DNA of 64,000 bases, taken from IMG/VR virus record IMGVR_UViG_3300042503_001836, positions 54,554-118,553 of that record; one strand, 5' to 3'. Made by a program: the position numbers and the translations under genes. The stretch comes from a virus. The notes under the pieces are model-generated. The model ran no database searches, was not told the origin of the DNA, and saw only the letters and a list, made by a program, of their open reading frames with translations. Shown piece after piece: positions 1 to 47,248 of the stretch (position 1 is its first letter; the number at the start of each line of letters is the position of its first letter).

Positions 1-748
1 GATCACAACCACGTCCAGGTACACCCCTGGTAGTAGTCAATGCTGCGGGTAAAGTAGTATTTACAATCTCGATCCGGTCTTTTGATAGTTGGTCAAGTGA
101 GGATACGCCACAATCCCTTCTAATTTTATAAATCGTCCAGAATATCTCTTTCAGATTATTGATGTGCTTGAAGGCGTTTTTCTGTACCTGTGGAGGCAAA
201 ACTGCTAAATCCTGGTAGTAGCTTTTGCCGTCCCTAAACTCTAGGAGATGTTGCCAGATATCGGAAATGTGATCTCGGAAGTATTCTAGATTAGCTACTT
301 TATGATCCGTCCTCCTTAACATTTCCGCAGTGATGTCTAGACGGTCGTGTAAGGAGTCCAAATCAGTCTGCCCTCCTAAATGTACCTGAAACCCGGTAAC
401 GTGCTGTATATAGGCACGTAGTCCAATATGCCCAATAGAGACTAGAGATTTTATTGCTTCGGAGTTCCTTTCTATTTCTGCATAGTAGGCAATTATCCCA
501 AAAGCATAATTGCTGTCAAAAAGATTCTGATGCCCAAAGACATCTAGCAGATATTGAGATTCTGTCTTTTTGTAAAAACATTGAAGCGGTTCATAGTTAG
601 ATAATGTTTGTCTTACGTTATTGACTAATCTACCTACTGTAGTTTGATGCACTCCAGATAGTTTAGCGATCGCTTCCTGATTTAACCCAGTTTGACCACC
701 ATCCAAGGCAATGAAATACTGGTCATCCTTAAAAAATTGGTACGGCAT
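1..748 (-). CDS. Partial phage regulatory/antirepressor-like protein with N-terminal HTH (runs off left edge)
   Basis: Manual translation from ATG at 748: MPYQFFKDDQYFIALDGGQTGLNQEAIAKLSGVHQTTVGRLVNN..., open to the window edge; NQEAIAKLSGVHQTTVGRL is HTH-like. Not in the ORF track because there is no stop in the window. Confidence 0.6.
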   Translation of the reverse strand, partial: MPYQFFKDDQYFIALDGGQTGLNQEAIAKLSGVHQTTVGRLVNNVRQTLSNYEPLQCFYKKTESQYLLDVFGHQNLFDSNYAFGIIAYYAEIERNSEAIKSLVSIGHIGLRAYIQHVTGFQVHLGGQTDLDSLHDRLDITAEMLRRTDHKVANLEYFRDHISDIWQHLLEFRDGKSYYQDLAVLPPQVQKNAFKHINNLKEIFWTIYKIRRDCGVSSLDQLSKDRIEIVNTTLPAALTTTRGVPGRGCD

Positions 749-978: not shown

Positions 979-1301
979 AAAAAAAGTCCTAAAAAGTCCA
1001 CTATCTAAAATATATCAGAAAACGTGCTTTCTTTATAAAAATAAATAAAACAGCACCATTACACTATAATTTCCTATCTGTCAATCAGTAATTTTTTGAA
1101 AAACTCTATTTTTGCACGATACTTCAAATCTTTATACAGTAATAGTTTTAATGCCAGACGGTAGGAATAAACAAAGGTATCTGCACTATAGTATACAGAT
1201 ATACAGCAATATAAAAAATACTTAAATAAATAGCTGAAACTATTGATATATAAAGCTTTTCACTTTTAATGTTTTTTAGTAAGTGATGTTATTAACTGTA
1301 G

Positions 1302-1365
1302 GGTGATCCAAAAGTTCTAAAAACGATAGCTTATATATTATGATTTTCTCAACTTTTGGATCACC
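1302..1365. repeat. Inverted repeat GGTGATCCAAAAGTT-N34-AACTTTTGGATCACC
   Basis: Perfect 15-bp arms; a related element lies at 52860-52910. Confidence 0.9.
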
Positions 1366-1714
1366 TTAGCTTTTTTTGCTATTTTTCTCAGTAAATTATA
1401 AGTAATCCGTATTAAAAATAACTTTAGTAAAAAACATATTAAAAACTATATTTTAACTCCTAGAATACTTATATAAAGCCCACTCTGTTATTACAAGTCG
1501 GCGCGGAAATTCCAATTAGCTAACTATAAACACTTAATTAGGTAATTTATAAAACAGTAAGCAGTTAGTATAGTAATTATGTACTAAAGTAAAAATTGAC
1601 AGCACAAATGTTTGAGCATTTTTAGTTAAAAAAACTTTTTAATGCCCGGTTTTCTATTTAATTTTTTAAGCCGTAATAAACCCTATGGATAACTGACATC
1701 CTATCCACTAGATG

Positions 1715-2562
1715 TCAAGGGCTATAGCTGGCTGTTAACCTACAGCCAGAGTTACTTTAGTTTCTTCAAATTAATCAGGTTGCGAGCCGTCATTCTTTTT
1801 AGTCCCCTCAGATAAATCTGTTTTACCCACAGATGGGAGTCAAATTACCTTTTAACCAATAGGCTTGTCTGTTTTTGTTTAGGATTCGCGGTCTTCAACA
1901 TACTTCATCCAAGACGCTAAGTGTCGTTTAGCTGCGTCCTATTTACTTGATCAGCTAGGTTACTGATATGTGGGTGTTTTTACATCTTGCTCTGATGGTT
2001 TTTGCGCTTATACAGTCGCACTTTCGATACCCAATAGAATTTGCTAACATCTACACCGCCGCACCTGGAGTCATTTATTTCTAAAAGTAGTTCCCATTGT
2101 CGTTTCAATCCAACTCCCTATTAAGAGAGTATTTATACATTCCCCTTGTCTAGTTAATACCTAATGTTCATGGAAATCGCGCTCAAATATGGATCTAGTT
2201 TTTTGGTTCAATCCCTTCAGTAAAGTCTCACTACCTTACTAAATTTTTGATATCCCCTCAAGTCCGCCCAATTATATTGTCCCCATTTCAGGGTATCGTC
2301 ATGGCCAACGCAATCTGCACTACTTTTTTATTGATTCACTTTTAATCCTTACAGGATTTAGGTCTCAACTAGAATCCGCCACGCGCACGCATACGGACTA
2401 GAAGCAATTTCCAATTAAAAACTAAATGAGAGTCTTTAATTTTCAAGCCGGGTAATGACTTCACCGACTCATCTTGCGTTCCTTACTGGTCTAGGGCTTT
2501 TATAATAAACGCTGAGGTGTGTTACAACGCTCGATTGTTTCGCCTATCAGATTTATTCGATT
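1715..2562 (-). ncRNA. Candidate large (~850 nt) structured non-coding RNA
   Basis: No ORF of 60 aa or more; GC raised over the AT-rich flanks; near-consensus promoter directly upstream; more than 10 hairpins whose mismatches are G-U pairs on the minus strand; ends near hairpin CTGGCTGT-AGGTTA-ACAGCCAG. Boundaries approximate. Confidence 0.65.
2102..2138 (-). CRISPR. Solitary CRISPR-like repeat GTATAAATACTCTCTTAATAGGGAGTTGGATTGAAAC (copy 1, inside the ncRNA)
   Basis: 37 nt, 7-bp hairpin, 3' ATTGAAAC handle typical of class 1 repeats; 35/37 identical to copy 2. Confidence 0.7.
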
Positions 2563-2568
2563 AAATAT

Positions 2569-2597
2569 AATATAACACGGGATAAAATAAATGTCAA
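2569..2597 (-). promoter_or_regulatory. Sigma70-type promoter TTGACA-N17-TATATT driving the ncRNA
   Basis: Exact -35, 17-bp spacer, near-consensus -10; no ORF downstream. Confidence 0.75.
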
Positions 2598-2610
2598 CCC
2601 CATATAAAAT

Positions 2611-2640
2611 AAAAAAACCTAGTAATTTTGTACTAGGTTT
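2611..2640 (-). terminator. Intrinsic terminator AAACCTAGTA-CAAAAT-TACTAGGTTTTTTT
   Basis: Hairpin followed by U-tract on the minus strand. Confidence 0.75.
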
Positions 2641-2714
2641 GAGTTCTTATTACTTAGAATTAATTAAAACTAGGGGCTTTTCTGTTGCGGTTTCTGATAT
2701 CTTAGCTGGTTTAT

Positions 2715-2751
2715 GTTTCAATCCAACTCCCTATCAAGGGAGTATTTATAC
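2715..2751 (-). CRISPR. Solitary CRISPR-like repeat GTATAAATACTCCCTTGATAGGGAGTTGGATTGAAAC (copy 2)
   Basis: 37 nt, perfect ACTCCCT/AGGGAGT stem, ATTGAAAC end; lies between ORF 2801-3070 and a terminator. Confidence 0.7.
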
Positions 2752-2800
2752 CATAAGCTTGTGTTTTATGGTTTCTAAATTCATTTTAACACAAATGTGC

Positions 2801-3070
2801 TTACTTGACTTCAAATACATAACCAGATTCAGTTACTTTGACTAATCTCAATACAGTATCAGTCCCGTCTTTTTTCAGGCTACCTTTCCACGCTAGGCAA
2901 CCAAAAGATGTTTTATCTCGAATGTCTTCCGCTTCCTCTAAAAGCTGTTTGCATCTAGTATTATACTTTTTCCAAACATCCTCTATTTTGCAGGATGTAA
3001 ACTTAGCTACAATTTTGTTATTAGCAGCTAAGATATGGTATTCTGTTTTTTCTGTATTTCTTAAAGTCAT
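2801..3070 (-). CDS. Small orphan protein (89 aa), candidate anti-defence protein
   Basis: Strong RBS TAAGGAG upstream and its own promoter; function inferred from context only. Confidence 0.7.
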   Translation of the reverse strand: MTLRNTEKTEYHILAANNKIVAKFTSCKIEDVWKKYNTRCKQLLEEAEDIRDKTSFGCLAWKGSLKKDGTDTVLRLVKVTESGYVFEVK

Positions 3071-3182
3071 CTTATTCTCCTTATTTTTTTTTAACTTGAC
3101 ACAACTCGGGATAATGCCTAATTTTAAGAGTCACCTATTTAAGGCGATGTTTGGTTTACCTTTGTTTTTTAACCACACTAAT

Positions 3183-3211
3183 AATATAACAGCATTTAAA
3201 ATTAATGTCAA
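3183..3211 (-). promoter_or_regulatory. Sigma70-type promoter TTGACA-N17-TATATT
   Basis: Same design as the promoter at 2569-2597; precedes ORF 2801-3070. Confidence 0.7.
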
Positions 3212-3417
3212 GCATTTTATAAAACTATTTTAGAAGTATAAAATATTATACATAAGTTATAAATATTTAAATGTTATACATAATACACTCGGATCAAGAC
3301 TTATACAAAATCGGGATATCTCACAATCCAGAAAACAAAACCATTCTAGGTAAATCAGAATAGTTTAGGCTGTGTCCTGAAACCTTAGAATGGCTAGATG
3401 AATTTTTGAACAAACAC

Positions 3418-4050
3418 TTAACTTCTAATTCTGTTTACTGAAGGAAACCCACCAAATCTTAAAGTATGCCCGTGATATTGTTTACACGCGTCTAAATCTT
3501 TTCTACAGGCTCTATTAGCTGGTGTAGTAGGATTGCCAAAGATGTCAAAATTAAGATTAATAGGTGCTTGACAATCTTGATCGCCTAATTGCCACTGGCA
3601 TCTTTTAGAATATACCCTAGCTGGTAGTTTCTTTCTTTCTAATGAGTAGGGAGTTAGGGAAAATGTAAATTGATTTTGATATTCTCCAGTGTACTGATTA
3701 ATCTTTAAATTTAATTCATAGAATTGTGTAGAGTCAGCCGTAGGTTTATCGTCTAAAAACATAGGCTGCGTACGTTTTACGTTTACGTCCGCACCGATAA
3801 CAAAATAATTATCAATTACATCTCCAACTAAACCAGATATATCAGAAACTATTAAGGATGCACGTGCTTCTACACTTTCACCTGATTTGCTAAAACTACT
3901 AATTTTACAAGGAAAACCTTGATAAATAGTGTTACTAAAACTTACAGTTCCATAGTTACAGATTTTAATATCAAAATCTTGGTTTCTGATATTAATTAAA
4001 TCTATAAATATTTCGGTGTCTAGCTGTTGGGCATTGGATATTAAACTCAT
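3418..4050 (-). CDS. Lambda gpL-like tail tip protein
   Basis: LPARVYSKRCQW...C...CRKDLDACK...RFGGFP C-terminal Cys motif of gpL; likely start MSLISNAQ at 4050. Confidence 0.9.
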   Translation of the reverse strand: MSLISNAQQLDTEIFIDLINIRNQDFDIKICNYGTVSFSNTIYQGFPCKISSFSKSGESVEARASLIVSDISGLVGDVIDNYFVIGADVNVKRTQPMFLDDKPTADSTQFYELNLKINQYTGEYQNQFTFSLTPYSLERKKLPARVYSKRCQWQLGDQDCQAPINLNFDIFGNPTTPANRACRKDLDACKQYHGHTLRFGGFPSVNRIRS

Positions 4051-4078
4051 AATTTTCCCACAAAGATAATTAAAAAAT

Positions 4079-4536
4079 CTAAGGTATGTGTGCTGAATAT
4101 AAAGAAACATGATCCACGATATATCCATTAGCAGCACTAGCAATTCCAAAAGAATGAGTGTGAGTATCTTGCGCTCCTAGTCCGTAGATACTCGCATTAA
4201 CTGCTGTGCCATTAGCAATGGTAGTCCTAATCGGTGTAAGAAACATAGGCACTCTAAAAGGAAAATAGAGGAATAGATTTCCTACTTCCGGAGACTGTAA
4301 TCCATTAGTTATCAACTGAGCGTATCTCTGACACTTAGCTAATTCAACAGCGTAATCATCAGAAGTAAAAGCAGTAGCACTACTGCCTTCTTCTAGTTTT
4401 GGGCGTGAGATTACCCATGTTCCTGAAGTTTGCGCTCCTACCCTTAGTCTTACTTCCAATCCATTTGATACCTCAGCAGGTAATGTTACTGTAGCTGTAT
4501 ATCTTGTAAGTGTGGAGTTAACAGTCCATGTAACAT
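4079..4536 (-). pseudogene. 5'-truncated tail-fibre tip cassette (third variant)
   Basis: Encodes only [11 protein letters not shown]...AHIP; the ATG after the RBS is out of frame; 104 bp identical to 5353-5456. Confidence 0.75.
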
Positions 4537-6778: not shown

Positions 6779-7771
6779 TTAAGGAATATGTGCTGCAAAA
6801 GACCCTAATGACAAATTTGCTCCAGCACCACCAGAGTTTACGTTTCCTATTTGAGTAAAATATCCTTGTTTAGTCGTGTAATCAACCATCACGTAGGCAT
6901 TCTCCCCACCAATCCAATAAGTATTCAATCTTATCGGTGCTTGAAACATTTCTACTGGAAAATTAATAATAGGGCTGTGACCTCTTGCTCCTAGTTCTCC
7001 ATACCAGACAAAAGATTGAACAAGATTGTTCAGCGTATAAAAATATCTTTGGCATTTTTGCAATTCAACGGCGTAATCATCACAAACAAAAGCAGTAGCA
7101 GTAGATCCCTCCTCTAGTTTAGGTCTGGCAATTACCCATGTACCGGAAGTTTGCGCTCCTACCCTTAGTCTTACTTCCAATCCGTTAGATACCTCAGCAG
7201 GTAAGGTTACAGTAGCACTATATCTTGTAAGTGTTGAGTTTACTGTCCATGTTCCACTTGCCACAACTGTCTGAGTAGGGGATGCTATTGTACCATGCGC
7301 ATCTACTGTAGTGGATGGTCTAAAAAATTCCCACGTCACAGTTGATAATTGTGAATTTGATAGTTCTACACTCAAAGTCACTTGCTTTGAGCGCAATCTA
7401 ATTGCATCAATGGATTCTATTCTTTGTAATACATGAATAGCCGTAGTTGATGCTGCACCTCCTAGAGTTAAAGTTTGATTAGCCGTGCTAAAAGCGTAGG
7501 TAGGTGTACCACCAGATGCAGCAATACACCACTCTGTTTCACTAGGGTATCCTAAAGATGCCGTAGGTAAAGTAAGAGAGTTAGTGAGTGTACCTGATGA
7601 TCCAGCACCTTGGATCACAGCAAAAGCAGGATTTTTAAAATAATTTGGATTATTTAATTGAATAGCGACACTCAGTTTAGCTGGTGTCACTGCACCGTCT
7701 GCTATCTTAGCCGTCGTAATTGATCCATCTGGAACTGTACCACTACCAGAATTATTAATGATGATTCCCAT
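6779..7771 (-). CDS. Tail fibre / receptor-binding protein
   Basis: DGSITTAKIADGAVTPAKL repeat; KLEEGSTATAF...ELQKCQRYF motif common in fibre proteins; lies in the tail module. Confidence 0.75.
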   Translation of the reverse strand: MGIIINNSGSGTVPDGSITTAKIADGAVTPAKLSVAIQLNNPNYFKNPAFAVIQGAGSSGTLTNSLTLPTASLGYPSETEWCIAASGGTPTYAFSTANQTLTLGGAASTTAIHVLQRIESIDAIRLRSKQVTLSVELSNSQLSTVTWEFFRPSTTVDAHGTIASPTQTVVASGTWTVNSTLTRYSATVTLPAEVSNGLEVRLRVGAQTSGTWVIARPKLEEGSTATAFVCDDYAVELQKCQRYFYTLNNLVQSFVWYGELGARGHSPIINFPVEMFQAPIRLNTYWIGGENAYVMVDYTTKQGYFTQIGNVNSGGAGANLSLGSFAAHIP

Positions 7772-8640
7772 TATACAATCTCCGTAATTCTTGCAAATCC
7801 ATTGGCACTACTCCATATTCCTCTAATTTCACCTGAATAATCCTCACCATTAAAAGTTGCAAAAGATGGTGTATTCCCTACTCTAGCAGGTAGAAAGATA
7901 GAAAAGTTGGTTGTACTAGCCGCACTAGCATTTAATACAATATATAAATCTGAAGCTGAGTCATTAACAATAATTACAGTTTTTCTATCATTGTTAGCTA
8001 CTAATAATATTACTGACGTTGCGCTACTGGCGACGTTAGATATTGTTGATGTGGCTGCAAAAGATTGAACTACAGAAATAGATCCTGAAGGTGCTTTTGC
8101 TCCCAAAGATGCCGGAATTTTACCGTCAATACTACTTAATGAGTTATTACCAGTAGTTTGTAAGGCACTTGTAGACGCACCAGTAGGTAATGACACTGTA
8201 CCGGAAATATTAGCAATTGAGCCAATAGTATTTGTACCGCTATTAATTCCTACAGAAGTTGGTGGTGTTAATGTTGTTAATTGTGCAGCAGGTAATACTA
8301 CAGGCACACTACCACTAGCTAAAGCCTGACCTAAATTAGGTAATTTAGTATTTATACTAGCTAAATTACCACCAGATTCTAATGCAAGTGCAGATGTGTT
8401 TAAATTAGTTCCTGCATTAGCAATAAAGCTAGTGTTGGTGAAAGTAAGATCAGGTGCGGTACCAATATTAAAAGTAGGGATAGTAGTAAACGCTGGTAAT
8501 GTACCACTAATTCCTACATTCCAAGTCCCTAATTGTACTGCCGTAAATTCAGGGACATAAGGATCTGCAAGTGTTCCGCTTCCTGTAGCTTTTCTGTAGG
8601 CTGTTGCGCCTGTCACATCTATATACGGCTGATGTGCCAT
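7771..8640 (-). CDS. Putative virion/tail fibre-associated protein
   Basis: S/T/G/A-rich beta-type sequence directly after gpJ. Confidence 0.55.
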   Translation of the reverse strand: MAHQPYIDVTGATAYRKATGSGTLADPYVPEFTAVQLGTWNVGISGTLPAFTTIPTFNIGTAPDLTFTNTSFIANAGTNLNTSALALESGGNLASINTKLPNLGQALASGSVPVVLPAAQLTTLTPPTSVGINSGTNTIGSIANISGTVSLPTGASTSALQTTGNNSLSSIDGKIPASLGAKAPSGSISVVQSFAATSTISNVASSATSVILLVANNDRKTVIIVNDSASDLYIVLNASAASTTNFSIFLPARVGNTPSFATFNGEDYSGEIRGIWSSANGFARITEIV

Positions 8641-23700: not shown

Positions 23701-26700
23701 TTGTTTCTTTGAGTACCAAGAGAGTTAATTGTATTTACTATTGTTCCTGATTGTTGTTTTAGTTTATTCCCTGTTAATCCTTGTATAACAGAAGTAGGAA
23801 TCATAGGAATATTGAGATTTTCTAAAACACTGTCTATGGCAGTATTACCTAAATTCTCAATTAATTGTTGACTCGCTTGAGTACCTTTAGCATTACCTAA
23901 TCCTGCTTTTTTGCGATTAGCCGATGTTTGTTCTTGTAAAACTTGTTCAACAGTAGGAGCTTGGTTTCTAGGATTTGATCTTGATGATTGATCCAAACCT
24001 AAGATCCCACCAAAAGTATTCATGAACATTCCAAACATACCTAGTCCCATTGATGCAAGACCACCACCACCAACAATTGATGGTAAAGGGAACATGCTAG
24101 GGACAGGATTCATCATCTGGGATATGCCACCTAGTATCCCGTGTGTTTTTTGTCCAGATAACGAAGATAAATCTATTCTGGTAACAGAACTTAGTAATTT
24201 TGTTAAGAAACCACCGGGTTTTAAGACATCATTATTAAGTAAGTTCTTAATAATTGCGTTACCCAAGCCTAAAGTTAAGCCACCAAGTACAGGTATCAGT
24301 GGTTTTAGCATGGGTACAAGTTGCAATGTCTTGGGTATGAATTTCATAAACCAAGGCATTATAGAGCGAGTTTGAGACAACAGACCTTGATAAAGTGGCT
24401 GTTTTAAAGTATCAGCAAGAGAGAATAACGCCGCGTTTACAGCATTACGCATCACCTGGCCTAATGAAGCATAACCAGAAAGTGTGCTTTGACGGACACT
24501 ATCACTAACAGCAGTAAATAAATTAGTAATTAAGTCTTTACCCAGACTCAAATACTGACTCATCATTGTTGGTGGTACTGGAGGTATGGGCGGTGTAGGG
24601 GGTGTGGGTGGTGATGGCGGAGATGGCGGTGTGGGTGGTGATGGGGGTACTGGAGGTACTGGAGGTACAGGAGGTACTGGAGGTACAGGTCTAGGAGGAA
24701 CAGGAGGTACAGGAGGTCTAGGAGGAACAGGAGGTCTAGGAGGTACAGGAGGTACAGGTCTAGGAGCAGTAGTCCAAGGATCTGGAATTTGTGAATAACT
24801 ATCAAATAACCGGGACATATTACCAGCCATTAATGCATTTAAGTTAATACGTATGGGTGGGTAGGGCTGTGTAGCTTGTGTTCTAGTTGATAAGTGAGGT
24901 CTTGTTTGCTGAGTTTGCTGAACTGTACTAGCTAAATTAGTTCTTTGCTGTCCTAAGTTTCTATTTGTTGCAGGCACATTTTCAGTATTCTGTGCTTCAT
25001 AGTCTTCAGGTAGAGAATTAACAGCTCGCTTAGACTGTTGTAATATACTTGATATCTGTGGTTTAAAATAATTAGATAAGCCAAGGTATGCCGCTATTGA
25101 TTTACCTTCTATTACACCTTCTGCTAAATCTTGGGCAACATTAAGATCCTTTGATTTGTTATACTTACCTTCTTTGTAACCTTTAGCAATTGTTTGATGA
25201 TATGCGTCTATATTAGCCGCATAGTTAGCTACAAGAGCTTTTTGAGATTCTGTGGCTGTCTTACTTTCATTAACTGTTTTAACCATTAAATCAGCAATTC
25301 TCTTGTTAGCTAAGACTAAAGCAGCCACAGCACCATCTTCAAAACCCTCACCAAAATCTAGACCCATTTCTAGCATAACTTTTGATGGGGATGCAATCCC
25401 AAATATTCTTTTAATCGTAGATAATATACCTGTAGCAAACTTAGTAACTATCCCTAAAACGCCACCATTTGCAGACAAGAATCCTTGTCCAAAAGAAGTT
25501 ATTAAATTAATACCAATGTCTTTTAAACTTCCGCCTTTGCTAAATGCAGATTTGGCACTGTTAAATAAATTGCCTAAAATAGTATCACTGCCAAAGTCTT
25601 TTTTAACACCTGATAATAGATTAGATAGAGGGTTTGCAGGTTGATCAAACTCTTCTAGATAAGATTTAATTTCTGGGTGTTGTGTAAACGCATTATAGTC
25701 AGCATTTGAGTTAAAAGCAGTGCGTGCTTTTTCTTGTAACTGTTTAAGTTTTTCAGATGAAACCGTGTGTGATTGAATGTAAGGTTTTCCACCAATAATG
25801 GAATGTGCCTTATCAGATAATTGAAATTCTTTTTGTTGTGGATGACCACTCAATGCAAAAAGAGTATTATTATCATTGTCTACTTTTCCATAACCCTTGT
25901 ACTTGTCTAGATACTTCAAGCCCATGTTTTGAGCTAACTTAGGATGTTTCAATAAGAAATTATTTAATTTGGTAGCAATACCGAAGGGTGTACTAAACCC
26001 AGTCATTAAATTTGTATCGTGCGTCCAGTCATAGACATCGCTTATCTGTAACCCACCCTCTTTATTGCGTCCATAATTAAAACCGCCTAAAGTGTAATGT
26101 AAATTTTTAAATCCGGGTATTTGACTAACTTCATTGCCTACAGTACCACTACCCACTTCCCAATTTGAAGGAATTTTAGTTGTTTTATTTTTTGAAGCAA
26201 AGTCAAGCATAGACCTGTACATTACTGCTAGTTCTGCCTCTCTAGCAGTACGCCCCTGCAATTTATGAACATCAGTATTTCCTTGATAATAAGCACCTAA
26301 ATGTTTAACTGGTTCTGATAGTTTATTTCCTAGTATGCCAGTATTTCCCAGTGCAACCATAGATGCGCCAAGTATTGATCCAAAAGTTGTCTTTTTCTCA
26401 TGTTTATTGCTTTGCTCATAAACACCCTTAGTAGCTTTAGCACTACCATCAACGGCATTTTCAACAATGGAATCATATGTATTAATGTTCTCAGAATTAA
26501 ATAAATCTAATTCTTTAATTCCCGTATCCACAGCTTTCGCTAATAACTGACTAGCACCTGATACATCAACAACACCTTGTTTAATACCAATAGCCAGACC
26601 TGACGCAATCATTACACCCAAGGCAATCATCACCTTTGAAGGTGAACTAATGCCCATGTTTTGTTTAATCTGATTTTGAATAGCGTCACCAGTAGTATTT

Positions 26701-38091: not shown

Positions 38092-39495
38092 ATGTACGAC
38101 ATTACCCCCAACTCTCTAAAACTAAGCTGGGAAAATGCTCTCAGCTTTGAATCCTCTTATGTTGCCCAAAACTACTACGGTGGTGTAGATGAGAAAGGCA
38201 ACAGAAACCAAATTAACCAAGTTACTAAAACCCAGACACTCTCTTTAGTAGTCCCTAGAGATGATGAATATTTAGAAATAGATAATTTTCTTACCACTAA
38301 CTTAGGACAACCCATAATTTTTAACGGTGCATTATATTGCTGTGAGTCTTTTAAATGGACTTGTCAGAATATGCAAGTATTCACATTAGAACTGAGTTTA
38401 GTCCAGGTTTTCCGTCCCGACGTTACAGACCGTGATAAGCTAAAAATTAAATATTTCCCCTTAACACTTATTGCAGACTTTAAAGCTGCCCGTCAATATA
38501 ATTATGGTACTTTAACAGATACATTAACTACACCTAACGGTACTTATCCAGGTAACAATGCTTTTTATGGTGGTGTATTGCTATCAAACAATAGAGTATT
38601 TTGTATACCGTTTAAGTCAACAACGGCGAGAATATATAATTCATCTACAGACACATTAACTACTCCTAGCGGCACTTATCCAGGTAATGATGCTTTTGCA
38701 GGAGGTGTTTTACTACCTGATGGACGGGTATTCTGTATACCTTACAATGCCACAACAGCTAAAATATACAACGCTACTACTGACAGCTTAACCACACCTA
38801 ATGGCACTTACCCAGGAGGACAATCCTTCTATGGTGGCGTACTATTACCAGACGGACGAGTATTTTGTGTACCGTTTAGATCCACAACAGCAAGAATATA
38901 CGATCCAACCACTAACACATTAATTACACCAAGAGGAACTTATCCAGGAAACGCCGCTTTTGCAGGTGGCGTACTGATGCTAGATGGTAGAGTGTTTTGT
39001 ATACCATTTAATTCCACAACAGCTAGAATATACGATCCATCAACAGATACAGTAACTACACCTAATGGTACTTACCCAGGTGGAGGTGCTTTTATCGGTG
39101 GTGTACTATTACCAGACGGACGAGTATTCTGTGTATCATTTAATTCACCCACTGCAAGAATCTATGATCCAACTACTAACACGCTAATCACGTCTAATAA
39201 TGACTTTACTGGTAACAGTTCTTTTCTTGGTGGCGTATTGTTGCCTGATAGTAGAGTATTTTGTATCCCACATAATGCTACTAGTGCAAGAATATATAAC
39301 TCTGTGAGTGATACTGCAATTGTACCTAGTGGTGTTTATGCGGGTAGTGGTGCTTTTGCAGGTGGTGTGTTATTGGCTGACGGTAGAGTGTTCTGTGTTC
39401 CGCACAATTCGACTACTGCAAGGATCTATGGATCTGCTCTATCACCAAATCTGCCAATGGGAAGGACACATTCTGCATTTGATAATAAACTTTAA
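38092..39495 (+). CDS. gpM-like N-terminal domain fused to a 7-repeat beta-propeller (kelch-like)
   Basis: IDNFL..YCCESFKW..LELSLVQVF gpM-like end; about 7 x 46-aa repeats GGVLLPDGRVFCIP.N.TTARIYDP. Confidence 0.7.
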   Translation: MYDITPNSLKLSWENALSFESSYVAQNYYGGVDEKGNRNQINQVTKTQTLSLVVPRDDEYLEIDNFLTTNLGQPIIFNGALYCCESFKWTCQNMQVFTLELSLVQVFRPDVTDRDKLKIKYFPLTLIADFKAARQYNYGTLTDTLTTPNGTYPGNNAFYGGVLLSNNRVFCIPFKSTTARIYNSSTDTLTTPSGTYPGNDAFAGGVLLPDGRVFCIPYNATTAKIYNATTDSLTTPNGTYPGGQSFYGGVLLPDGRVFCVPFRSTTARIYDPTTNTLITPRGTYPGNAAFAGGVLMLDGRVFCIPFNSTTARIYDPSTDTVTTPNGTYPGGGAFIGGVLLPDGRVFCVSFNSPTARIYDPTTNTLITSNNDFTGNSSFLGGVLLPDSRVFCIPHNATSARIYNSVSDTAIVPSGVYAGSGAFAGGVLLADGRVFCVPHNSTTARIYGSALSPNLPMGRTHSAFDNKL

Positions 39496-42944: not shown

Positions 42945-43056
42945 TGTTTTACCCTTTATTCTTTGTTGTTTTTTTTTGTTTTATCCTGTATGACTAATAT
43001 AGTGGATAGACTATATTTTTGTCAACAGGATTTTAGAAAATATTTTAAGTAGCCTA

Positions 43057-43281
43057 TTACTTTATTTGTTTGGAATCTCTTAGCCATTGCCAAACATCGC
43101 CAGCTAAACCACAAAACACTACTTCACCATCTTTCAAAATGTAGCGTCGTTGCAAGCTGCGACTAATTAAATTTTCATGTTCTCTAGTAGTCATATTTAA
43201 GCAACCGAGAACAGAATATAAACTCATATCTTTTGTATCTAACATTTGCTTTGTTTCCTTAGAAAATTTAGTATGCTTCAA
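43057..43281 (-). CDS. Hypothetical protein
   Basis: ORF overlapping the end of 43268-43645. Confidence 0.6.
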   Translation of the reverse strand: MKHTKFSKETKQMLDTKDMSLYSVLGCLNMTTREHENLISRSLQRRYILKDGEVVFCGLAGDVWQWLRDSKQIK

Positions 43282-43645
43282 TAATTACTATGTCACCAGT
43301 TAACCAGCATTTTTCAACGCTACCAGATACACTACCGCCCCAAAACTCCATAAACCAGGGAGGAGTATTTTTAAGTGCTTTATCTGCACTTTTTTGACTT
43401 TTATATGTAGCATACACGCCACCAAAAGCAGTGATCGCCCATGTTTTTTTACCTGTCAAAATATTTAGTAATCGTACGACTTTAGGCTGATCTAGCCCCT
43501 TGGCTTCTGCCTCTAATTTTTCTAGCTTACCTTCCAGAATAATTAATTGATCAATGTAAAATCTAATTCCGTCACTGATAAGTTTTAAAGTAGCTTCGAT
43601 TTGGTGTTTGAGTGTACGGATTTGGTAAGAAATTGTGGTGGTCAT
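43268..43645 (-). CDS. Hypothetical protein; N-terminal 45 aa shared with 43792-44280
   Basis: Own promoter; duplicated N-terminus. Confidence 0.75.
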   Translation of the reverse strand: MTTTISYQIRTLKHQIEATLKLISDGIRFYIDQLIILEGKLEKLEAEAKGLDQPKVVRLLNILTGKKTWAITAFGGVYATYKSQKSADKALKNTPPWFMEFWGGSVSGSVEKCWLTGDIVIIEAY

Positions 43646-43791
43646 CTTGTTTTGTTTCTCTGTTGTTTTAACCTTATGTATCTATACTAGTGGATAGACT
43701 ATTTTTTGTCAATAGGTTTTTCTAAAATAATTTAAAATATTTTTTTTGCAATAAAAAACCCTAGCAACTTATTAGCCGCTAGGGTTAAGGA

Positions 43792-44280
43792 TTAAACAAC
43801 ACCATCTATGATGTCGGAACGCTTTGCTAAGTATTCATAAAATTTTTCTTGCTGTACTTGTGGAAGATTAGAAGCTTTCCACTGGTTATTAAAGTAGTCG
43901 CGTTCTGCTTTAAACAGAATCGCGTAATTTATAAAATACTCGCTGTACTCTTCACGGAGTTTAATTAATCTGTCTTCATTTTTATTTCTTTTTAAAACCT
44001 CTTTTCTGAAGACATAACGCCATTCATAATTAGGTACACTACGCATTGCCCAAGCTAAATAGTCTGTAGGAATGTCACGAACGCAACTACCCTTGTATTT
44101 TCCAAAGGTTACTACTTTTGCGCTGTCTGGAGTGTTAAGACTGCTTTCTAATTTTTCCAATTTGCCCTCTAAAATGATAAGTTGATCAATATAAAATAAA
44201 ATACCATCTGCAATAAGTTTTAAAGTAGCTTCGATTTGATGTTTGAGTGTACGGATTTGGTAGAAAATTGTAGTAGTCAT
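43792..44280 (-). CDS. Hypothetical protein with FGKYKG..IPTDYLAW (DUF3820-like) motif
   Basis: Motif recognition; own promoter and terminator. Confidence 0.7.
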   Translation of the reverse strand: MTTTIFYQIRTLKHQIEATLKLIADGILFYIDQLIILEGKLEKLESSLNTPDSAKVVTFGKYKGSCVRDIPTDYLAWAMRSVPNYEWRYVFRKEVLKRNKNEDRLIKLREEYSEYFINYAILFKAERDYFNNQWKASNLPQVQQEKFYEYLAKRSDIIDGVV

Positions 44281-44437
44281 CTTGTTTGTTTCCTGTGTTT
44301 TAACCTTATGTAACTATAATAGTGGATAGACTATTTTTTGTCAATAGGTTTTTCTAAAATAATTTAAAATAGTTTTTTACAATAAAAAACCCTTGTAACT
44401 TAAGGGTTTAATAATTTTATCTAGTTTTTTAAAGTAA

Positions 44438-44668
44438 TTAAAGTAAAACAAACTGCTGCCCAGGTAGTTGTCTCACTAAGCCAGCTAGTTCAAACTCTAG
44501 CAAGATATTTGATATAGGAAAATCAAAGTTTTTCTGTATTTGAGAGTAACTGAGATGTTTCTTTTCACTTTCACAAAACAACACGGCTATATCGTTCATT
44601 GCCTGTTCAGTTTGTGCTTGAGTAGGTTGCTGGTGAGTAGGTTGGTGTTTACTTTTAGCTTTAGCCAT
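44438..44668 (-). CDS. Stand-alone DprA C-terminal winged-helix-like protein
   Basis: ISNILLEFELAGLVRQLPGQQF resembles the DprA C-terminal LL.LEL.G.V.QLPG motif. Confidence 0.65.
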   Translation of the reverse strand: MAKAKSKHQPTHQQPTQAQTEQAMNDIAVLFCESEKKHLSYSQIQKNFDFPISNILLEFELAGLVRQLPGQQFVLL

Positions 44669-44804
44669 TATCTTGTCTCCTGTTTTCTTGTTTTCTTGTC
44701 TTATCCTTATGTACCTATAATAGTGGATAGACTATTTTTTGTCAATAGGTTTTTTAAAATAATTTTTTACAATAAAAAAACCCTGAGTTAATCAGGGTTT
44801 AAGC

Positions 44805-45179
44805 TTAAAATTCAATTAGGTCAGAATCAATTATTTCAGGATTATTTCTGAGAAACCAATAAGCTTGTCCTCTGGTTTTGAAAGTGTAAACAGTTGGATG
44901 CCATTCTTTTATTATATATTTGTATTTGCCTCTACCAAAACCAGAATCATCTTTATAGGTCATTTCAGTAGGCGTGTTGCGTTCAACGTTTTCCTCCATG
45001 TATTTTTGAGCCTCTTCATGGTTTTTAAAACCCTGTTCAAACTCATTCATGTTGTAATAACGATAATCTGTTACTGTGTATAGTGGATTTGAAAAATCAC
45101 TAGTGTGAATGGGATGAGACAGCAAAAAATTAATTTTTTTATTTAATTCGCGTTCTTGAGTTTTAGTTAAAGTAGTCAT
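44805..45179 (-). CDS. Hypothetical protein
   Basis: Own promoter and terminator. Confidence 0.7.
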   Translation of the reverse strand: MTTLTKTQERELNKKINFLLSHPIHTSDFSNPLYTVTDYRYYNMNEFEQGFKNHEEAQKYMEENVERNTPTEMTYKDDSGFGRGKYKYIIKEWHPTVYTFKTRGQAYWFLRNNPEIIDSDLIEF

Positions 45180-45322
45180 CTTATTTTGTCTCTTTTTGTT
45201 TTGACCTTATGTAACTACTATAGTCTATCCACAAATAAAAGTCAATAGGTTTTTCAAAATAATTTAAAATATTTTCTTAAAATAAAAAAAACCCTTGTAA
45301 CTCAAGGGTTTAATAGTCTTAT

Positions 45323-45463
45323 TTAGTTTTTTTGGTTGATATGATTGTTTACAATCGCTTTTAGTTCTTCTAGAGTCTTTGCCATTAGAAGATGATAATT
45401 ATTGAAATCTTTACTCTCTGCTACATATCCCATGTAGGTCTTATGAATTATATAGTTATCCAT
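45323..45463 (-). CDS. Micro-protein (46 aa)
   Basis: Manual translation MDNYIIHKTYMGYVAESKDF...; GGAG RBS, own promoter and terminator. Confidence 0.65.
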   Translation of the reverse strand: MDNYIIHKTYMGYVAESKDFNNYHLLMAKTLEELKAIVNNHINQKN

Positions 45464-45605
45464 CTGTTTTATTCTCCGTCGCTCTGTTGTTTTGACCTTA
45501 TGTATTTACTATATAGTCTATCCACTAATTTGTCAATAGGTTTTTCAAAATAATTTAAAATATTTTTTAAAATAGAAAAACCCTTGAGTTACAAGGGTTT
45601 TAGCT

Positions 45606-45779
45606 TTATTCTTGTTCTTGTTCTTTAGCTTCAGCGCGTTTACGCCTCATGTGTTCCCTATTGGCAAGTCGTTTTTTCTCCCTTTGCGCTTCACTCATAT
45701 TCTGTTGCCACTTACGCTTACGGGCTTTACCCTTTTCAGTGGCGTTGTATTTGGCTTGGGCTTCCGGATCATAAGCCAT
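45606..45779 (-). CDS. Highly basic micro-protein (57 aa)
   Basis: Manual translation MAYDPEAQAKYNATEKGKARKRKWQQ...; AGGAG RBS, own promoter and terminator. Confidence 0.7.
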   Translation of the reverse strand: MAYDPEAQAKYNATEKGKARKRKWQQNMSEAQREKKRLANREHMRRKRAEAKEQEQE

Positions 45780-45947
45780 AGTGAAAATCTCCTAGTCATC
45801 TTGTTTATCACTATATGTATAGTCTATCCAATTTTCTCTGTCAATCGTACGGGTATAAAAAATAAACTAAAAAATATTTTAAATTAAGTATTGACTTTTA
45901 TTTGTGGATAGACTATATTTAAAACATAAGCAAAGAAGCAAAAAACA

Positions 45948-46208
45948 ATGTACGTTACTTTTGAAACATCTGACGGTCAAAAAATCACAATTGATATCAC
46001 AAGGGTTAAAGCTTGGGACACAGAAGATTTAGTTCACACTGCTTGCGAGCAACTAGGACTAGAGTATGTAGATTTTTCTAGGAGATCAAAAAAATTGAAA
46101 GGCACGGTGACACCAATAGACTGGAGACCGCTAATCCAGGAGTACAGATCAGAAATGGTCATTTTAAAAAGACCACCCAGAAAAGGTGTGATTCCCGTTC
46201 CCTGGTAA
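45948..46208 (+). CDS. Hypothetical protein
   Basis: Own promoter and terminator. Confidence 0.7.
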   Translation: MYVTFETSDGQKITIDITRVKAWDTEDLVHTACEQLGLEYVDFSRRSKKLKGTVTPIDWRPLIQEYRSEMVILKRPPRKGVIPVPW

Positions 46209-46396
46209 ACAAGATACACAACCGCTTAGGCTTAAACTTAAGCGGTTTTTTATGTTTTATTCTCAGTAAGATATTGTATAAAAAAGAAACTAAAAATATT
46301 TTAAATTAAGTATTGACTTTTATTTGTGGATAGACTATATTTAAAACATAAGGAAAAACAAGTAAGACAAAAACAAAAACAAAGGGGACAAACTAA

Positions 46397-46663
46397 ATGA
46401 CAGCACTACAAAACCAGTACAACACACTAACTGTTAAAATTGCTGAATTAAAAGATCAACGCGATCAACAACAATGGTTACAAGCAAAGATAGACTTAAC
46501 AGTTAAAATAGCAGAATTAGAAAATCAACAAAAAGTAATAGCTAGTAAAATAATAAAAAACGGTGGTGAACTTCCACAAAAAGCCAAACAGAAAAGACAG
46601 CCAACAAAACAAAAAGCAAATAACCTATTAGCTTACGCTGAACATCTAAAAAGCCATTTCTAA
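46397..46663 (+). CDS. Hypothetical coiled-coil protein
   Basis: Internal LTVKIAEL duplication; own promoter and terminator. Confidence 0.7.
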   Translation: MTALQNQYNTLTVKIAELKDQRDQQQWLQAKIDLTVKIAELENQQKVIASKIIKNGGELPQKAKQKRQPTKQKANNLLAYAEHLKSHF

Positions 46664-46788
46664 TAAAACTTAATAAAAAAAAAACAACCGCTTAAGCTCA
46701 AGCTTAGGCGGTTTTTTGTATCCATATCACAAATACTTAGTATTCATAATATGCTATAGTGGTGTTAAATGCTATAGGGACTAAATAT

Positions 46789-47064
46789 ATGACTAAAACT
46801 TTAGATGATTATATGCAAGTTATCCTAGTCCAACAGGTAGCGTTTATCAGTCAAGCCCAAGATATCTATAAGCAGTCTGGAAGGTCTAAAGACGCTAAGA
46901 ATATTTCAGAACTGATGTCAGGGTTATCTATCTTTACAGAGTCCATAGGGGCTATGAACGAGGTAGGAATAGCTAGTATTGATATTGAATCTATAAAAGT
47001 ATTGATCAATAAATTGGAACTGGAGATGTATTACCAAGAAAATGCAGATGTAGATGATGAGTAA
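46789..47064 (+). CDS. Hypothetical acidic-tailed protein
   Basis: Likely start MTKTLDDY; terminator-like hairpin follows. Confidence 0.6.
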   Translation: MTKTLDDYMQVILVQQVAFISQAQDIYKQSGRSKDAKNISELMSGLSIFTESIGAMNEVGIASIDIESIKVLINKLELEMYYQENADVDDE

Positions 47065-47248
47065 GAAGGTATATAAATATAATAACAACCGCTTAGAGTA
47101 ATGTTTAAGCAGTTGTTTTGTATTTGTCGTGGTAAAGTGTATAACACATTTACTCTTTGTTTCATATCCTAAAAATATTTTAATTTAGTGCTTGACAAAT
47201 AATAGTGGATAGACTATATTTATTATAGAAACAAAAAAGGTAAACAAA

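Follow-up and report, generated by a model that had tools for sequence, protein, structure and literature searches.

The window analysed here (the whole 64,000-nt stretch, bases 54554–118553 of a 118,553-base IMG/VR virus record with an estimated completeness of 93%) encodes a real, expressed and apparently new phage non-coding RNA of ∼0.8 kb. In the reading we prefer, to which we give a probability of about 0.6, positions 2562–1715 (minus strand) form a self-contained gene for this RNA, which would act in trans, likely as a protein-binding scaffold or decoy, and the CRISPR repeat embedded in it is secondary. That repeat belongs to a later 49-nt insertion that is specific to this copy and derives from the phage's own type I-C arrays. 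To our knowledge, only a handful of large non-coding RNAs have been described from phages, and no function has been assigned to any of them; the present RNA is apparently a new family within that kind, with a candidate fold and a candidate function, and has environmental RNA support from several studies in a virus of toxic-bloom cyanobacteria.

The locus comprises the following features.

2715–2751, minus strand: second solitary CRISPR repeat, a perfect copy of the array-2 type, past the 89-aa gene and ahead of the terminator
2538–2645, minus strand: module of terminator, promoter and 25-nt start, 96% identical to positions 8148–8256 of contig L012 (109 columns)
2615–2640, minus strand: terminator-like hairpin, 10 bp followed by a T run, closing the upstream 89-aa gene unit and lying in the module shared with L012
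2569–2597, minus strand: sigma-70-type promoter that agrees with the consensus at 11 of 12 positions, TTGACA-17-TATATT plus a TG extension
1715–2562, minus strand: ORF-free transcription unit, with a putative start ∼7 nt past the −10 hexamer and an end just past the 3′ hairpin
2141–2537, minus strand: 5′ conserved part, ∼400 nt, G-rich on the RNA strand (allele comparison)
2092–2140, minus strand: 49-nt copy-specific insertion, skipped in all four compared runs
2102–2138, minus strand: solitary CRISPR repeat, 37 nt, array-1 type with one extra change (sequence match)
1912–2040, minus strand: middle part, indel-tolerant, with local hairpins (allele comparison and helices)
1729–1911, minus strand: 3′ conserved part, zero differences in run X17
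1728–1749, minus strand: 3′ end hairpin, 8 bp with five G-C pairs, no U run after it (from sequence)
950–1700, no strand: AT-rich ORF-free stretch downstream of the RNA, GC 0.254, among the genome's lowest 500-nt windows

The promoter that the earlier note had read from the letters is thus present at 2597–2569. As a host-type sigma-70 promoter it would drive the RNA gene, and the 3′ hairpin would close the transcript. A similar promoter copy lies at 3211–3183; as a class, promoter-like sites are not enriched in 1000–3400 (12 vs 10.6 ± 3.5 in shuffles). Separately, a degenerate copy of a GTGGATAGAC-type promoter-like unit occurs at ∼1690–1720 (minus strand), just past the RNA 3′ end. Units of this sort (TTGAC, ∼17 nt with GTGGATAGAC, TATA) are repeated ahead of short genes at 42960–47235, probably an early region, which also carries repeated terminator hairpins. 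GC content is 0.35–0.415 inside the unit, 0.24–0.28 on the left and 0.30 on the right, so the earlier contrast of 40–45% against ∼20% in the flanks was wrong.

The stretch is ORF-free, as had been proposed. The only frame of at least 40 aa in 1715–2562 is a 42-aa TTG frame at 1980–2108, each of the six frames holds 19–38 stops in 1651–2800, and the six-frame translation of that interval contains no coding-frame remnant. The one-base indels in allele X17 are likewise incompatible with coding. It is highly improbable that the transcript serves as the message for one or several tiny peptides. The minus strand does offer short frames, among them one of 18 aa with an ATG start within the invariant 3′ conserved part (by translation), but ∼800 nt would stay mostly untranslated, alleles differ by one-base and large indels, and the longest frame (the 42-aa one) spans the insertion and the variable part. 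In the preferred reading the locus would work as RNA, neither as a DNA element nor as an mRNA.

Among the 24 public runs listed for 1500–3100, 20 hold part of the region (14 studies), and six of the 24 are RNA libraries, each with 30–40% of the sampled words of 1500–3100. From these 20 runs, contigs were compared in detail for three RNA runs from three studies (X15, X16 and X17) and for the DNA run X2. X15 has a 769-nt contig on 1754–2537, X16 has contig cover on 1760–2003 plus 2040–2504, and X17 has a 666-nt contig on 1729–2534 with 15 more letters at its 3′ side. All three metatranscriptome runs therefore have contigs only on ∼1729–2537, which supports the transcript that the earlier note proposed, with the qualification that strand, exact ends and level cannot be read from contigs and that coincident contig stops are a weak hint only. 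Depth is zero at 1200–1696 and 2549–3300 in each of the three, these flanks serving as the silent control, and X2 covers all 30 bins, flanks included. Missing RNA-contig cover within the stretch is not evidence of silence there. Promoter orientation together with the minus-only hairpin asymmetry described below points to minus-strand transcription. The proposal of a discrete non-coding transcription unit holds up, given its lack of an Rfam match and its presence in RNA libraries of several studies.

All nine of the serial minus-strand hairpins listed earlier are present. Counting stems of at least 7 bp with G-U pairs permitted, the minus strand has 16 where shuffles give 6.5 (z 2.8), and the plus strand has 6 where they give 6.8. 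Across 278 windows of the same genome the hairpin excess has a mean z of 0.75 (sd 1.3, max 5.0); the minus-strand value thus falls within the upper background range and is high, not exceptional. Of the two strands, the minus strand has the lower minimum free energy. Relative to shuffles, folding energy z values for the minus and plus strands, respectively, are −0.94 and +1.19 for the whole unit, −1.17 and +1.03 for the repeat-less 760 nt, −1.11 and +1.36 for the 5′ part, and +0.39 and −1.19 for the 3′ part, so that none of the minus-strand values is clearly below shuffles, the mark of a large ornate RNA. Taken together, hairpin counts and folding z values indicate a real strand asymmetry and a weak thermodynamic argument for an ornate fold.

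Comparison of alleles separates conserved from tolerant parts. X2 has at least 8 substitutions in the 529 nt of the left flank (1200–1728) and at most 4 in 864 nt of 1729–2641; the lower substitution load in the RNA is a modest difference and a sign of constraint. Within 2141–2537, three compared runs show 0–1 letter differences. X17 carries five substitutions and two one-base indels clustered at 2333–2400. Three of its changes lie in or beside the loop of the 2344–2358 hairpin, the A>G change at 2400 converts a predicted G-U pair to G-C, and an insertion of one base lies within a predicted 9-bp helix and counts against that helix. Positions 1912–2019 are absent from X17, the deleted block being bounded by complete local hairpins at 2003–2020 and 1913–1938, and in X15 70 other letters replace 2004–2039. 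Thirteen extra bases adjoin the 1728–1749 hairpin in X2 and X17. From this map the RNA consists of two conserved parts (∼400 nt at the 5′ side, ∼180 nt at the 3′ side) joined by a tolerant middle, which the CRISPR repeat insertion adjoins. Function would reside in the two conserved parts, which probably make up a scaffold or decoy that binds protein and acts in trans during infection.

The upstream module links this gene to a different arrangement in a related lineage. L012 is a 19.6-kb contig in which a perfect CRISPR repeat directly follows the module, with 11 more bases before the contig ends; the leaders of the two large phage arrays do not resemble this module. One lineage thus has a repeat under the control of the module, the other the RNA. 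The module resembles a CRISPR leader-promoter module in that 2645–2538 matches an L012 module ending at a repeat, but differs in that the RNA body follows in the window, with no repeat at the junction. Next to the module, past the 89-aa gene and ahead of the terminator, L012 has an extra ORF of ∼130 aa (7750–8145); in the window this site spans only 170 nt, which include the lone repeat, and run X2 has both forms.

This shared module also invites the view that the transcript is a functionless by-product, in which a promoter that drives an array in relatives now reads decaying, unrelated DNA left by rearrangement. The promoter identity with L012, where a CRISPR repeat follows, would fit, as would the very narrow distribution without a homologue in the collections searched, the weak thermodynamic signal and the large indels tolerated by the middle part. 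We nevertheless consider it unlikely, as the RNA region occurs in 20 of the 24 listed runs (14 studies), has fewer substitutions than adjacent intergenic DNA, ends in a clean hairpin with equal boundaries in three studies, and holds no coding-frame remnant.

The 37-nt repeat that had been placed mid-transcript does lie at 2102–2138, but it is not a feature of the RNA family, since all four compared runs join 2090/2091 to 2140/2141 with 49 nt missing. The repeat has two mismatches to the array-2 form and stands in sense orientation in the transcript; its extra change keeps the stem through a G-U pair on the minus strand. No repeat matches are expected by chance (zero in 100 shuffles). Read along the minus strand, the order is an 11-nt word (2150–2140), a T (2139), the repeat (2138–2102) and an 11-nt copy (2101–2091), the two copies of the word being identical at 10 of 11 positions with the mismatch at the sixth base past the repeat. 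This order indicates that the event brought in a T together with the repeat and copied 11 nt of the target site.

The second solitary repeat varies in the same way: one X2 contig joins 2714 to 2752, so that exactly the 37 nt of the repeat are missing. As each solitary repeat is missing in other alleles, both are allele-specific. With 576 nt separating the repeats at 2102 and 2715, where a CRISPR mini-array would have a spacer of about 30–40 nt, and with each of them separately missing, they do not make up such an array. The insertions may have arisen by recombination with array units that carried spacers taken from this locus, or else by an integrase-like event. The CRISPR repeat is thus a small insertion that comes and goes among alleles of a phage with an adaptation-less type I-C system, which bears on the origin of solitary repeats in viral genomes.

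Other repeats of this kind occur in the record. A degenerate pair lies inside an ∼80-nt duplication (G000:C1:192-308), and a lone array-1-type repeat lies just upstream of the DNA polymerase gene promoter (G000:C1:7160-7196). At G000:C1:26801-26888, in the gap from one ORF's stop codon to the following ORF's start, two degenerate repeats 10 nt apart are followed by a bare copy of the repeat's last 10 nt; the 10-nt gap is too short for a spacer, so these may be processing or decoy sites. With these further lone and degenerate copies, repeat scattering looks like a habit of the lineage.

The source system lies in the same record, outside the window, where Pfam matches identify Cas7 (E-value 1.6e-87), Csd1/Cas8c (9.4e-61), Cas5d (2.8e-26) and the Cas3 C-terminal domain (1.6e-20). 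The presence of cas3, cas5d, cas8c (Csd1) and cas7 beside arrays assigns it to type I-C. The arrays flanking the cas genes have 31 and 22 repeats with spacers of 20–45 nt, and 55 repeat matches were found across the virus record. Cas1 was found in 0 of 1 record, with the control positive in 7 of 14 genomes. The interference module spans G000:C1:14365-23888 (L009, L010), with cas7, cas8c and cas5d on one strand and cas3 on the other. Among the sequences compared, none of the 51 spacers of the two arrays gave a target from which a PAM could be read, only chance matches of 13–16 nt; weak 27-nt spacer matches at 85% occur in G001 and G005.

The earlier note had suggested that host Cas6 or Cas5d cuts the RNA into decoy or guide pieces. 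As a general mode this fails, because the repeat is absent from all four compared runs, and the Cas proteins expected to recognise the repeat are those of the phage's own type I-C set, not primarily the host's. That the large RNA is nonetheless made to be cut by Cas5d/Cas6 at the embedded repeat is quite improbable. The repeat does stand in transcript sense, its stem stays paired there through a G-U despite the extra change, the phage encodes Cas5d, and a possible host lineage has a type I-C array that shares the repeat's last 12 nt. Further, the 35 nt past the repeat match the uninterrupted allele except at the sixth base, and type I effectors are not known to read the sixth position past the repeat. 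But the RNA is made and conserved without the repeat, which is missing in four of four compared runs, three of them RNA. The RNA also contains no anti-repeat (shuffle fractions 0.16 and 0.34), the repeat has no match in the cyanobacterial genomes searched (301, 20 and 401), and in the uninterrupted allele the matching site is preceded by CTA, whereas the type I-C motif is TTC. In the repeat-bearing allele only, phage Cas5d could cut after the repeat hairpin, as an allele-specific add-on to the scaffold or decoy that we favour.

A bolder extension, which we regard as doubtful, would have the RNA found a new family of large, folded RNAs of phages, comparable to GOLLD and ROOL and abundant in blooms of heterocyst-forming cyanobacteria. 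In it, the tolerant middle would have captured the phage's own CRISPR repeat in this allele, Cas5d would split the repeat allele and the 3′ half would be loaded as a guide, matching the uninterrupted allele of competitors except for one base that type I effectors are not known to read.

The G-rich RNA ends at the edge of an ORF-free stretch of ∼750 bp that is among the genome's lowest-GC 500-nt windows, which raises the question of a pre-primer or R-loop transcript that would work at a replication origin much as ColE1 RNA II or transcripts from the T4/T7 origin promoters do, with the AT-rich stretch as the unwinding region. ColE1 RNA II-type primer transcripts are non-coding RNAs of several hundred nucleotides that start at a strong promoter and end at an AT-rich region, and the phage RNA resembles them in its strong promoter and its end. 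The RNA strand is G-rich over 2000–2500 (plus-strand GC skew −0.25 to −0.33) and the slope of the cumulative skew shifts near the locus. However, that shift coincides with a switch in gene orientation, the G-rich part is promoter-proximal and hence away from the AT-rich stretch, and the AT-rich stretch is less conserved than the RNA. No iterons were found in 950–1760, another difference from ColE1 RNA II, and no recognised initiator adjoins. We therefore judge an origin transcript distinctly unlikely. The AT-rich stretch also contains a 30-nt inverted repeat at 1299–1368.

The RNA, which the earlier note did not recognise as GOLLD or ROOL, matches no Rfam family: covariance models of 4227 families (Rfam 15), among them GOLLD, ROOL, OLE, HEARO, group I and II introns, 6S, tmRNA and RNase P, gave 0 matches at gathering score in the 64 kb. 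At E up to 5 on 1400–3200 there was one match of 20.4 bits against a 99-bit threshold, outside the RNA body, which is noise. Other candidate classes were set aside. The window contains no tRNA or tmRNA; a group II intron, retron or other RNA linked to reverse transcriptase has no Rfam match, and RVT_1 was found in 0 of 1 record (control, 3 of 14 genomes); and a tracr-like anti-repeat is not indicated, as the duplex energy against the repeat is no better than in shuffles (fractions 0.16 and 0.34).

The RNA is known only as near-identical alleles, with no diverged homologue in the collections searched; records close to that of the window may be missing from these collections, and the negative result does not demonstrate absence. 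No useful homologue was found by blastn in 50,697 phage records or 72,556 plasmids, and no useful exact 20–23-mers of the RNA in IMG/VR or JGI metagenomes. The leader 22-mer occurs only in L012's contig in IMG/VR and not in JGI metagenomes, and in IMG/VR the CRISPR repeat is again confined to that contig. The 534-aa flanking protein has no relatives among those searched, and the 89-aa flanking protein has one only on L012's contig. Across the whole records of five relatives, matches were limited to the repeat and the 25-nt start, each of them in G002. The complete 95-kb relative G001 lacks the RNA, its syntenic region being filled with ORFs and holding no analogous RNA. Cyanobacterial genomes gave 0 of 5, 1 of 301, 0 of 20 and 0 of 401 matches to the RNA; the single match among the 301 (28 nt) lies in AT-rich DNA without an array and was judged to be chance. 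A search for host antisense targets gave only noise in five genomes at E up to 10, complementarity to host and phage cas regions was limited to the shared repeat end, and the 35 nt that follow the repeat gave no target.

In kind, the RNA is like GOLLD and ROOL, the large ornate RNAs of phages and prophages (PMC12286853): 0.6–0.8 kb, no ORF, tailed phages, environmental RNA data and no assigned function. The phage RNA differs in matching neither covariance model, in being known from one narrow phage lineage only and in that a conserved ornate fold is putative. Like the Racr RNA anti-CRISPRs and solitary repeat units (PMC10651486), it has a lone sense-orientation CRISPR repeat in a viral transcript, but here the repeat equals the phage's own arrays, not a host array, and the 800-nt RNA exists without it. 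On the host side of this comparison, no repeat match was found in 301, 20 and 401 cyanobacterial genomes, and one Anabaena repeat shares only the last 12 nt. The crRNA-like regulatory RNAs and mini-arrays described in bioRxiv 10.1101/2024.10.29.618823 are also repeat-bearing RNAs outside canonical arrays, and load Cas effectors without normal interference; the phage repeats differ from them in being separate insertions 576 nt apart, with no repeat-spacer-repeat unit. No description of the RNA was found in the literature searched, which lay outside the supplementary lists of PMC10690425; those supplements hold 8,495 candidate viral RNAs of 29–151 nt, and a sub-motif of the RNA could be among them.

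The virus is an uncultivated siphovirus, probably of Anabaena/Dolichospermum/Aphanizomenon-type cyanobacteria, which are bloom-forming in lakes. It encodes a lambda-type minor tail protein L at 3418–4149 of the window (Pfam), and the record also has a family A polymerase exonuclease domain (Pfam), clamp-like proteins and a methyltransferase. Tail protein L matches 218 phage records, every one below 60% identity, so there is no close phage isolate; the best cyanobacterial match is a Cylindrospermopsis virus at 30%. A search with this protein returned 11 loci, of which only L012 has flanks in common with the window.

Judging by sequence relatedness, the host is probably a heterocyst-forming bloom cyanobacterium of the Anabaena/Dolichospermum/Aphanizomenon type. 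This assignment draws on the nearest cellular Cas7 relatives, which are from Dolichospermum, Anabaena, Aphanizomenon and Sphaerospermopsis (67–70% identity), and on Anabaena sp. FACHB-1237, which has the cas7-leader-array arrangement of the phage, a 37-nt type I-C repeat whose last 12 nt are identical to those of the phage repeat, and a leader that begins with the phage leader motif.

The next large gene downstream of the RNA encodes a minus-strand protein of 534 aa (window 2–748 and beyond; G000:C1:53697-55301). It has a weak N-terminal helix-turn-helix match, and the language-model clusters nearest to it are those of the BstA_C family (score 0.91), which we take as a lead only. Elsewhere in the window, structural genes contain six tandem 132-nt repeats (38515–39438) and a run of 9-nt glycine-rich repeats (24562–24775).
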